Origin: a virus
Lineage: Duplodnaviria > Heunggongvirae > Uroviricota > Caudoviricetes
IMG/VR virus record: IMGVR_UViG_2541047122_000022
DNA length: 6,885 nt
Reading direction: 5' to 3' (one strand)
Shown here: one piece after another, positions 1,323 to 2,085 of the stretch
Layout: every line of letters starts with the position of its first letter
Position numbering within the stretch: the first letter of the stretch is position 1
The notes under the pieces: generated by a model
What the model saw: the letters and a program-made list of their open reading frames with translations, nothing else
Told to the model about the DNA's origin: nothing
Database searches by the model: none
Made by a program: the position numbers and the translations under genes

Positions 1323-1550
1323 ATGTTGAAAATTGATGCTATAGCGTTTTTTGGCAGCAAAACAAAGCTTGCCAATGTCGCAGGAGTTAGGCTGGCAAGC
1401 GTTGCTGCATGGGGGGAACTGGTTCCTGAAGGTCGCGCGATGCGCCTGCAAGAGGCATCCGGCGGGGAACTTCAGTACGACCCCAAAGTTTATGACGAAT
1501 ATCGTAAGGCAAAGCGGGCGGGGCGGTTGAACAATGAAAATCACCACTGA
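1323..1550 (+). CDS. dicC: DicC-like Cro-type regulator (YdaS/DicC family), 75 aa
   Basis: ORF track 1323..1550 (+). Sequence MLKIDAIAFFGSKTKLANVAGVRLASVAAWGE.VPEGRAMRLQEASGGELQYDPKVYDEYRK matches my memory of DicC/YdaS-type Cro-like proteins. RBS AAGGG lies 7 nt upstream of the ATG; the gene is divergent from dicA. Confidence 0.88.
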   Translation: MLKIDAIAFFGSKTKLANVAGVRLASVAAWGELVPEGRAMRLQEASGGELQYDPKVYDEYRKAKRAGRLNNENHH

Positions 1551-2085
1551 ACAGGTTTGTGAGGCTCTGGATACCTGGGTATGCCGACCAGGAATGACAC
1601 AGGAGCAGGCGACGATATTAATCACGGAAGCATTCTGGGCTCTGAAAGAACGCCCGAACATCGATGTTCAACGCGTCACGTTTAATGATGGCGAGGTTGA
1701 TCAACGGGCGCTGGGCGTTAACCGGGTGAAGATATTCGAACGCTGGAAAGCTATCGACACCAGAGATAAGCGTGACAAATTCACGGCGCTGATTCCGGCA
1801 ATTATGGAGGCTATCCGGATCAGCGATTTCAGATTGTATTGTGAAATTACTGACGGAAAAAGCATTACGTACATGATCGCCGGGTTAAACAAAGAATATG
1901 GCGATGTGGTGGAGTCCGGGCTGCTTTTTGCGGATCCAGTTGTTGTGGAACGTGAGACTGACGAGCTTATAGAAAAAGCTATTGCTTTCAAGCACGCGTA
2001 TCGTCAGCAATACCAATATTACTTTGCAGATAAACAAATGTCTGCCAGGGGGGCGTATGAGTATCGATGCACTACGATGGGCTAA
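1534..2085 (+). CDS. CII-position protein, 183 aa, possibly YdaT family (putative CII functional analogue)
   Basis: ORF track 1534..2085 (+). Its start overlaps the dicC stop by 17 nt and its stop overlaps the next gene by 29 nt. It sits between the Cro-like gene and the replication initiator. Starts MKITTEQV and contains ...KFTALIPAIMEAIR...; family assignment is from memory only. Confidence 0.5.
   Translation: MKITTEQVCEALDTWVCRPGMTQEQATILITEAFWALKERPNIDVQRVTFNDGEVDQRALGVNRVKIFERWKAIDTRDKRDKFTALIPAIMEAIRISDFRLYCEITDGKSITYMIAGLNKEYGDVVESGLLFADPVVVERETDELIEKAIAFKHAYRQQYQYYFADKQMSARGAYEYRCTTMG

Follow-up and report, generated by a model that had tools for sequence, protein, structure and literature searches.

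The 183-amino acid (aa) protein encoded in the CII position of a 6,885-nucleotide (nt) stretch of Caudoviricetes DNA (IMG/VR record IMGVR_UViG_2541047122_000022; the whole stretch is called the window below) belongs to the YdaT family, as judged from profile matches, predicted fold, key residues, synteny and operator. Its gene (1534..2085, + strand, ATG start) was delimited from the list of open reading frames (ORFs) and by identity to a RefSeq protein, and it gave PF06254 and phrog_163 matches. Its identity and general role as a YdaT-family, CII-like activator are in our judgment highly likely. The protein is a divergent long form of the family, that is, a known kind of protein that databases already file as such. 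By analogy, the YdaT-family protein is regarded as a functional analogue, not a homologue, of phage lambda CII. The first-pass annotation had named YdaT tentatively. This assignment was borne out by PF06254, phrog_163, the subfamily profile A3, AlphaFold/Foldseek and the RefSeq name; its fallback, an unassigned regulator in the decision slot, does not apply, as the protein is placed in the YdaT family. The lysis/lysogeny slot of this O157 prophage is held by a published family (with structure, operator and CII-like role) and not by an unfamiliar regulator.

Assignment of the 183-aa Protein to the YdaT Family

A search with YdaT and CII-like hidden Markov model (HMM) profiles had been proposed as a check on the tentative name, and its outcome agrees with that name. 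Pfam PF06254 (YdaT_toxin) was matched by residues 59-131 at 24.8 bits, above the gathering cut-off of 21, and phrog_163 ('CII-like transcriptional activator') was matched by residues 1-181 at 3.1e-40. YdaT of the Rac prophage falls in phrog_163 too (2.2e-37); the 183-aa protein covers positions 10-164 of this profile vs. 10-130 for Rac YdaT. Phage_CII gave no match at E ≤ 0.1 in Pfam, where only YdaT_toxin and a sub-threshold P2_C match were listed. No NCBIfam model matched the 183-aa protein.

When 1.84 billion cluster representatives were scanned exhaustively with HMMER, only 62 clusters passed E ≤ 1e-3, and most of these were fragments from close relatives. The few full-length proteins among them (154-164 aa, 31-37% identity) are intermediates that link the 183-aa protein to characterised YdaT. 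The subfamily profile A3, built from ten sequences, matched the YdaT structures 8bt1 at 1e-16 and 3c4r at 8e-16 over profile positions 2-127. Because this match runs through the DNA-binding domain into helix alpha6, we consider homology to YdaT settled. N63, R70, W71 and an LxPAI motif are invariant in the 12-sequence family alignment A2, in which R70/W71 align with R57/W58 of Rac YdaT and R60 of CP-933P YdaT. The latter residues were reported to be essential for DNA binding and folding (PMC11879457, PMC9986795).

Some results weigh against the assignment and the role attached to it. In a single-sequence phmmer search of the PDB, 8bt1 reached only E 0.21, which is not significant, and BLASTP against Rac YdaT aligned only 29 residues. 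The function is transferred from homologs at 19% identity for Rac YdaT (alignment A2) and 23-28% for the CP-933P-type structures (Foldseek). AcrIIA4, which the phmmer search of the PDB found as weakly as 8bt1, was dismissed as noise.

Predicted Structure and Domains

An AlphaFold2 (AF2) model computed from a 10-sequence alignment with 29-37% identical relatives reached a mean predicted local distance difference test (pLDDT) score of 83.7, with values above 90 over most of residues 21-100 and of 89-97 over residues 11-100. A run on six near-identical sequences gave a pLDDT of 48.9 and was unusable. When the model was compared with the PDB by Foldseek, the top three matches were 8bt1_C, 8bt1_A and 3c4r_C, all at probability 1.00 (target-normalised template modelling scores of 0.55-0.62 to 8bt1 and 3c4r); the next match had an E-value of 0.69. 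Structure prediction had also been suggested as a check, and the only convincing PDB matches of the model are YdaT structures. Foldseek against the BFVD viral structures gave nothing meaningful (best E 0.14, a coronavirus polyprotein).

Residues 1-97 (1534..1824, +) are predicted by AF2 and Foldseek to form a POU-like helix-turn-helix (HTH) DNA-binding domain. The predicted helices lie at residues 5-17, 23-35, 57-71, 77-97 and 99-106. The alpha2-alpha3 loop, which is unusually long in the YdaT family (9-23 residues), has 21 residues in the model (36-56). Helix alpha3 (residues 57-71, QRALGVNRVKIFERW; 1702..1746, +) is the predicted recognition helix and carries the invariant N63, R70 and W71.

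The helix at residues 111-130 (1864..1923, +; AF2 pLDDT 75-87) is the putative equivalent of the alpha6 oligomerisation helix in the A3-to-8bt1 HMM alignment. In YdaT proteins this long C-terminal helix builds the four-helix bundle of the tetramer and is needed for DNA binding. By this alignment the hydrophobic residues L118, Y122, V125 and V126 would map onto the CP-933P core residues L110, V114, F117 and V118. The helix at 111-130 does not reach the length of alpha6; a break (FADP) comes next, and then an extra C-terminal helix from residue 135 to ∼161 (1936..2016, +), as delimited by AF2, alignment A2 and phrog_163 coverage. AF2 itself draws this helix from 135 to 182, with pLDDT falling from 88 to 62. 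The extra helix has no counterpart in the 141-aa Rac and CP-933P YdaT proteins and is common to the other long-form relatives of 154-165 aa in A2.

RefSeq lists the identical protein as WP_000705621.1 ('toxin YdaT family protein'); databases thus name it already, under a misleading 'toxin' label that is a historical misnomer according to the literature. Taken at its word, the label would make the protein the toxin of a YdaS/YdaT-type toxin-antitoxin pair, with the dicC-like protein encoded upstream as antitoxin. This reading has on its side the PF06254 title 'Bacterial toxin YdaT', the RefSeq name and the fact that the dicC-like and ydaT-like genes form an overlapping pair. One report (PMC11879457) also describes filamentation and death upon Rac YdaT overexpression; the same report ascribes this toxicity to transcriptional activation of rcsA. 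The toxin-antitoxin model is rejected in the literature, where toxicity was not observed for CP-933P YdaT and both YdaS and YdaT act as transcription factors (PMC8630535, PMC5917428). The fold predicted here is a DNA-binding HTH, the upstream partner is a DicC/Cro-type regulator, and no toxin family was matched in the Pfam, PHROG and NCBIfam searches. We consider a toxin function extremely unlikely and keep the reading as a CII-like activator.

Purifying Selection, Distribution, and the Variable Tail

The ratio of nonsynonymous to synonymous substitution rates (dN/dS) between codons 1-161 and the ortholog of phage mEp460 is 0.127, and 37 of the 54 differences are at third positions. The two shifted frames on the same strand gave ratios of 1.9 and 2.7 in the same comparison. 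This substitution pattern indicates that the 183-aa ORF is a genuine coding gene under purifying selection.

An identical segment is found in Escherichia coli strain 2017C-4109, in a lambdoid prophage integrated beside ompW (E. coli O157). Window positions 1200-2200, the part compared, are 100% identical to this strain, and most of the 1-kb segment is present in 763 of 5426 complete E. coli genomes. 'PPompW' phage records carry a 99.5% identical protein. The isolated temperate phages mEp460, HannyBb and PhiR42_1 carry orthologs of 173 aa with 89% identity over residues 1-161, which GenBank labels 'cII' or 'CII-like transcriptional activator'.

A gene in a defective prophage may be a decaying or functionless remnant. 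RefSeq shows frameshifted neighbours in the prophage of the window, and many truncated or chimeric forms of the family, YdfX of the Qin prophage among them, break after residue 93. The copy in the window is full length, has the low dN/dS given above, retains all invariant family residues and the operator, and is nearly unchanged in the PPompW records and well conserved in the isolated temperate phages. We consider decay very unlikely for this gene.

The chimeras form an observation in their own right. In many database proteins (P0015, P0026, P0039, P0044, and P0049), residues 1-93 are joined, directly behind the break, to DUF968, IstB/DnaC-like or replication-protein sequence. They imply recurrent prophage deletions with a breakpoint directly behind the DNA-binding domain.

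The last 22 codons (162-183; 2017..2085, +; pLDDT 56-62) form a variable tail that covers the Shine-Dalgarno (SD) element and the start of the initiator gene. DNA identity to mEp460 drops from ∼88% to background past nt ∼2017, and the 173-aa orthologs end in a different, non-homologous tail. Because identity collapses there and the tail holds the SD and start of the replication module, the tail appears to travel with that module. By this comparison the 22-codon tail is a piece of the replication module and indicates a mosaic junction.

A Diverged YdaT Box over the Start Codon

According to published work, CP-933P YdaT forms a tetramer of 222 symmetry, binds TTGATT-N6-AATCAA where ydaS meets ydaT, and acts as an activator of the promoter PRE933P (PMC9986795, PMC8630535). 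Rac YdaT was footprinted on ATGATTCATGAAAATCAA, the spacer of which contains its own start codon, and it raises leftward racR expression 29-fold in a box-dependent manner (PMC11879457). In the window, a diverged box TTGAAC-aATGaa-AATCAC (1527..1544, no strand assigned) straddles the start codon of the 183-aa gene and overlaps the last dicC-like codons. We predict this box to be the operator of the protein.

The box starts 7 nt ahead of the A of the start codon in the window and in every other lineage examined (Rac, one CP-933P-like phage, four relatives from metagenomes and three from genomes). A search for related loci with the narrow alignment A4 gave 10 loci. In all lineages the position 7 nt before the start codon is the best or the only box match. 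The box of the classical group reads xTGATT...AATCAA, and that of the group nearest to the 183-aa protein reads xTGA(A/T)C...GATCAG, in flanking DNA that is unalignable. The left half TGAAC of the window recurs in the three nearest lineages; the right half has the classical form.

The following points speak against an operator at this site. Matches to the classical consensus with three mismatches numbered 9 window-wide vs. 4.5 expected, which is not above chance. The box is a poor palindrome, in which left TTGAAC and right GTGATT agree at 3/6 positions. The conserved MKI codons also account for the right half-site. Because the lone match in the window is not statistically compelling, the operator call rests on the register and the cross-lineage conservation. 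The direct repeat TGAACA at 1528 and 1547 was also considered as a lambda-CII-like site and was dropped, as the spacing is 19 nt and there is no counterpart in other lineages; the copy at 1547 is explained by Glu-Gln codons.

A Predicted Leftward Promoter

In 8 of 10 lineages the leftward strand carries a -10-like hexamer (TAnnnT, at least 4/6) that starts 21-22 nt past the 16-nt core of the box. Such hexamers occur almost nowhere else across 0-69 nt (binomial P ∼4e-9). The hexamer of the window is TACGAT (1506-1501, − strand), which by this cross-lineage geometry is the predicted -10 element of a leftward, activator-dependent promoter analogous to lambda PRE. With a gap of 21-22 nt, the centre of the box would lie at -41.5/-42.5 of a promoter lacking a -35 element, which is the classic class-II activator arrangement. 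The transcript would start near 1494 on the minus strand, cross the dicC-like gene in antisense and enter the dicA-like repressor gene.

This promoter model has to be set against several observations. TACGAT matches only 4/6 of the -10 positions. There is no recognisable -35, and a generic sigma-70 consensus scan found no leftward promoter within the dicC-like gene; this null is uninformative, because a promoter without a -35 would be missed by such a scan anyway. In Rac, activation was assigned to the predicted promoter PracR4, which lies ∼190 bp from the box and is not adjacent to it (PMC11879457). The CP-933P box was placed downstream of, or covering, the PRE933P start (PMC9986795, PMC8630535).

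The same box position could also mean that the bound protein acts mainly as a repressor or roadblock, so that less rightward transcription would enter its own gene and the replication genes. The box takes in both the SD-to-ATG spacer and the first codons of the gene, which lies directly upstream of the overlapping initiator gene; the structural paper terms YdaT a 'repressor', and the intergenic promoter region between racR and ydaS is a further binding site of Rac YdaT (PMC11879457). A pure roadblock gives no reason for a leftward -10 hexamer kept at a fixed position in eight of the ten lineages, and box binding in Rac left ydaT expression essentially unchanged while leftward racR went strongly up (PMC11879457). 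We consider a primary roadblock role unlikely and prefer leftward activation.

If leftward activation holds, the 183-aa gene would be transcribed rightward along with the dicC-like gene after infection or derepression. The protein would oligomerise via its C-terminal helices and bind TTGAAC-N6-AATCAC at 1527-1544. From a class-II position ∼41.5 bp upstream of the start, it would then recruit RNA polymerase to the -35-less leftward promoter. The transcript, antisense to the dicC-like gene and extending into the dicA-like repressor gene, would tip the decision towards lysogeny or maintenance, in line with published work on YdaT of Rac and of CP-933P.

A Second Box near xis-int

The core TGAAC-N6-AATCA occurs exactly twice in 19 kb of identical prophage, at the start of the gene and at L001 3640-3655 (L001 is the 19-kb RefSeq prophage segment identical to the prophage of the window; coordinates given with an L number lie on the compared loci). 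The number of exact core matches expected by chance in 19 kb is ∼0.04. The second copy lies outside the window, 5.7 kb leftward, where it overlaps the exonuclease stop codon ∼60 bp upstream of xis-int. It is followed on the leftward strand by 22 nt and then TATAGT, with no -35. HannyBb (45 kb) also has exactly two exact copies, one located where the ortholog starts and the other at the exonuclease stop ahead of xis, each with a -10 at 21 nt. In phages with other xis modules (mEp460/Tritos, Evi, and 606R7), the box is followed after 21-22 nt by TATTCT, TATATT or TATAGT. By analogy, these arrangements suggest that the second box resembles a counterpart of the lambda PI promoter and is a predicted target of the protein.

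Weighing against this target, the box at the exonuclease stop lies within a 99% conserved exonuclease 3′ end, which is also found in classical-YdaT phages, and the box may simply be a piece of this gene end. Since the 3′ end is itself conserved, only the exact match and the -10 geometry in the differing downstream sequence count. A control search showed this 99% conserved exonuclease end, so box conservation between PPompW and mEp460 is not independent support.

We hold the box-proximal promoter geometry and the xis-int target tentatively, at somewhere between doubtful and an even chance. A family-wide generalisation would state that the start-codon box is the -41.5 element of a proximal -35-less leftward promoter and not, as was proposed for Rac, a remote enhancer acting on a promoter ∼190 bp away, with a previously undescribed lambda-PI-like xis-int promoter in addition; this broader claim is possible, and we rather doubt it. 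The predicted xis-int site would widen the lambda CII analogy from one promoter to two. If the generalisation is true, the YdaT family gains a lambda CII-style multi-promoter regulon, and the two-faced tetramer acquires, at a distance of 5.7 kb, the second strong site that CP-933P was reported to lack. The conserved register and the 21-22 nt distance to the -10, from Rac to distant metagenomic relatives, would provide a simple testable promoter model for the family.

Two other sequence features were noticed near xis-int. A perfect palindrome, GGTGATC-gccaca-GATCACC, of the YdaT-type half-site family lies inside xis at L001 3381-3399, outside the window. It is located 26-43 nt upstream of the int start codon and is without the -10 geometry of the other two boxes. 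In addition, the predicted -10 upstream of xis (L001 3600-3640 and the equivalents in L025 and L026) sits between imperfect inverted-repeat arms, as in 606R7 (GCCGCTAAC..TATAGT..GTTAGCGGC). Three phages show this layout with differing sequence; the inverted repeat could act as another regulator site or form a 5′ RNA hairpin.

Neighboring Genes and Overlaps

The first-pass annotation had described a 183-aa ORF at 1534-2085 in the CII position, overlapping the dicC stop by 17 nt and the initiator start by 29 nt and translationally coupled on both sides. The ORF is present with an ATG start, and the RefSeq coordinates agree. Both overlaps are confirmed by coordinates: 1534-1550 with the end of the dicC-like ORF and 2057-2085 with the initiator, which starts at ATG 2057. 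The CII position is likewise supported by the Pfam, PHROG and NCBIfam assignments of the neighbours, which place the gene between a Cro-type gene and replication genes, with a divergent repressor. For translational coupling the overlaps stand as shown, and coupling as such is only inferred, each start having its own SD-like element.

Upstream, the dicC-like Cro-type regulator gene (1323..1550, +; 75 aa) matched NCBIfam DicC at 167.6 bits (cut-off 130) and Pfam P22_Cro at 3e-13. The divergent dicA-like CI-type repressor gene (839..1246, −; 135 aa) matched NCBIfam DicA at 241.6 bits (cut-off 101) and Pfam HTH_3. Downstream, the gene at 2057..3094 (+) encodes an O-like replication initiator with a DnaT domain (phrog_1032 at 4e-91; Pfam DnaT at 8e-17). 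ATG 2057 is the RefSeq choice of start, and phrog_1032 aligns residue 1 to profile position 1; the longest ORF in this frame begins at TTG 1982, without an SD match. An SD-like GGGGCGG (1520..1526, +) for the ydaT-like gene lies within the dicC-like gene and forms a predicted duplex of -10.0 kcal/mol with the 16S 3′ end. For the initiator, AGGGGGG (2047..2053, +) within the ydaT-like tail gives -10.2 kcal/mol. The background across the window is -3.9 ± 2.7 kcal/mol.

The gene order is dicA-like repressor (−), dicC-like cro (+), 183-aa gene, O-like initiator and P-like loader. The order repressor (−), Cro/YdaS (+), YdaT (+) and replication gene also occurs in the distant relatives L004-L008, in Rac and in phage records. 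Rac and two metagenomic relatives have a gap of 10-22 nt, not an overlap, between the cro-like gene and ydaT. Because relatives show gaps, the overlaps are lineage-specific and not a family feature.

The intergenic region between the dicA-like and dicC-like genes (1247-1322) contains three palindromes of the TTAG-N6-CTAA type: TTAGGTAATTCTAA at 1248-1261, TTAGGTTTCTCTA near 1273-1286 and CTTAGGAAAATCTAAG at 1298-1313. They are probably the three repressor/Cro operators.

The initiator gene of the window (2057-3094) is 3 nt (one codon) shorter than that of strain 2017C-4109 (L001 9858-10898). In the P-like helicase-loader frame, the longest ORF (2886-3548, +) begins at ATG 2886 behind a strong SD, AAGGGGGT (-11.9 kcal/mol), and overlaps the 3′ end of the initiator gene by 209 nt in a different frame. 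RefSeq places the start of the P-like gene later, at what is ATG 3087 of the window. The Pfam Phage_lambda_P match starts upstream of ATG 3087, at residue 59 of the long P form, and the phrog_109 match runs from residue 18. phrog_15931 matches the initiator C-terminus as well as the long P form. These matches suggest either a long gene overlap or a family made of fused or frameshifted entries.

Cargo and addiction genes within the early-right region of the prophage are also present in the window, at 5176-5934 (+) and ∼6270-6430 (+). RefSeq labels an adhesin gene of the AcfC family (paa) and a type I toxin of the hokD type, as well as a fimbrial pseudogene with a frameshift (∼4485-5018).

Comparison with Known Systems

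One of the closest characterised systems is YdaT of CP-933P from E. coli O157:H7 (8bt1; relative 3c4r). It shares with the 183-aa protein the Pfam family, the PHROG and the predicted POU-like five-helix HTH fold, including a long alpha2-alpha3 loop followed by an oligomerisation helix, the recognition arginine (R60, equivalent to R70) and the LLPAI motif. Both genes occupy a slot between Cro-type and replication genes, with the same operator type at the cro-like boundary. CP-933P YdaT is 141 aa long vs. 183 aa here; the longer protein has a shorter counterpart of alpha6, then one more helix and a module-specific tail. The alpha2-alpha3 loop of CP-933P YdaT has 14 residues vs. 21. The half-sites are TTGATT/AATCAA in CP-933P and TTGAAC/AATCAC here, and the partners of CP-933P YdaT are a YdaS-type protein and the PaaR2 repressor, whereas those of the 183-aa protein are DicC-type and DicA-type.

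Rac YdaT (E. coli K-12, b1358) has the identical box register, with ATGATT-cATGaa-AATCAA vs. TTGAAC-aATGaa-AATCAC here. It also has the MKI start and a leftward -10-like hexamer 21 nt from the box (TATGAT vs. TACGAT). H56, which is needed with R57 for Rac binding, is Glu in the 183-aa protein, and Rac has a 22-nt gap between ydaS and ydaT in place of the overlap. Further binding targets of Rac YdaT are the intergenic region between the repressor and cro-like genes and the host gene rcsA.

Qin YdfX (K-12 b1568; L009 2347-2637) shares 87% identity over residues 1-93, and its gene comes directly after dicC with the same overlap. No similarity to the 183-aa protein was found for ydfW. At 96 aa, YdfX consists of the DNA-binding domain alone, without the oligomerisation helices. 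Since CP-933P YdaT needs these helices for DNA binding, as stated in PMC9986795, YdfX is probably a deletion remnant.

The likeness to lambda CII lies in genome position and in the inferred role, i.e., an activator made from the early rightward transcript that would act on a -35-deficient leftward promoter at the cro/cII boundary for the production of repressor, with a predicted, likely second target at the integration genes. The two proteins have no sequence relationship and differ in fold. Lambda CII reads the direct repeat TTGC-N6-TTGC, whereas the 222-symmetric tetramers of the YdaT type read inverted repeats.

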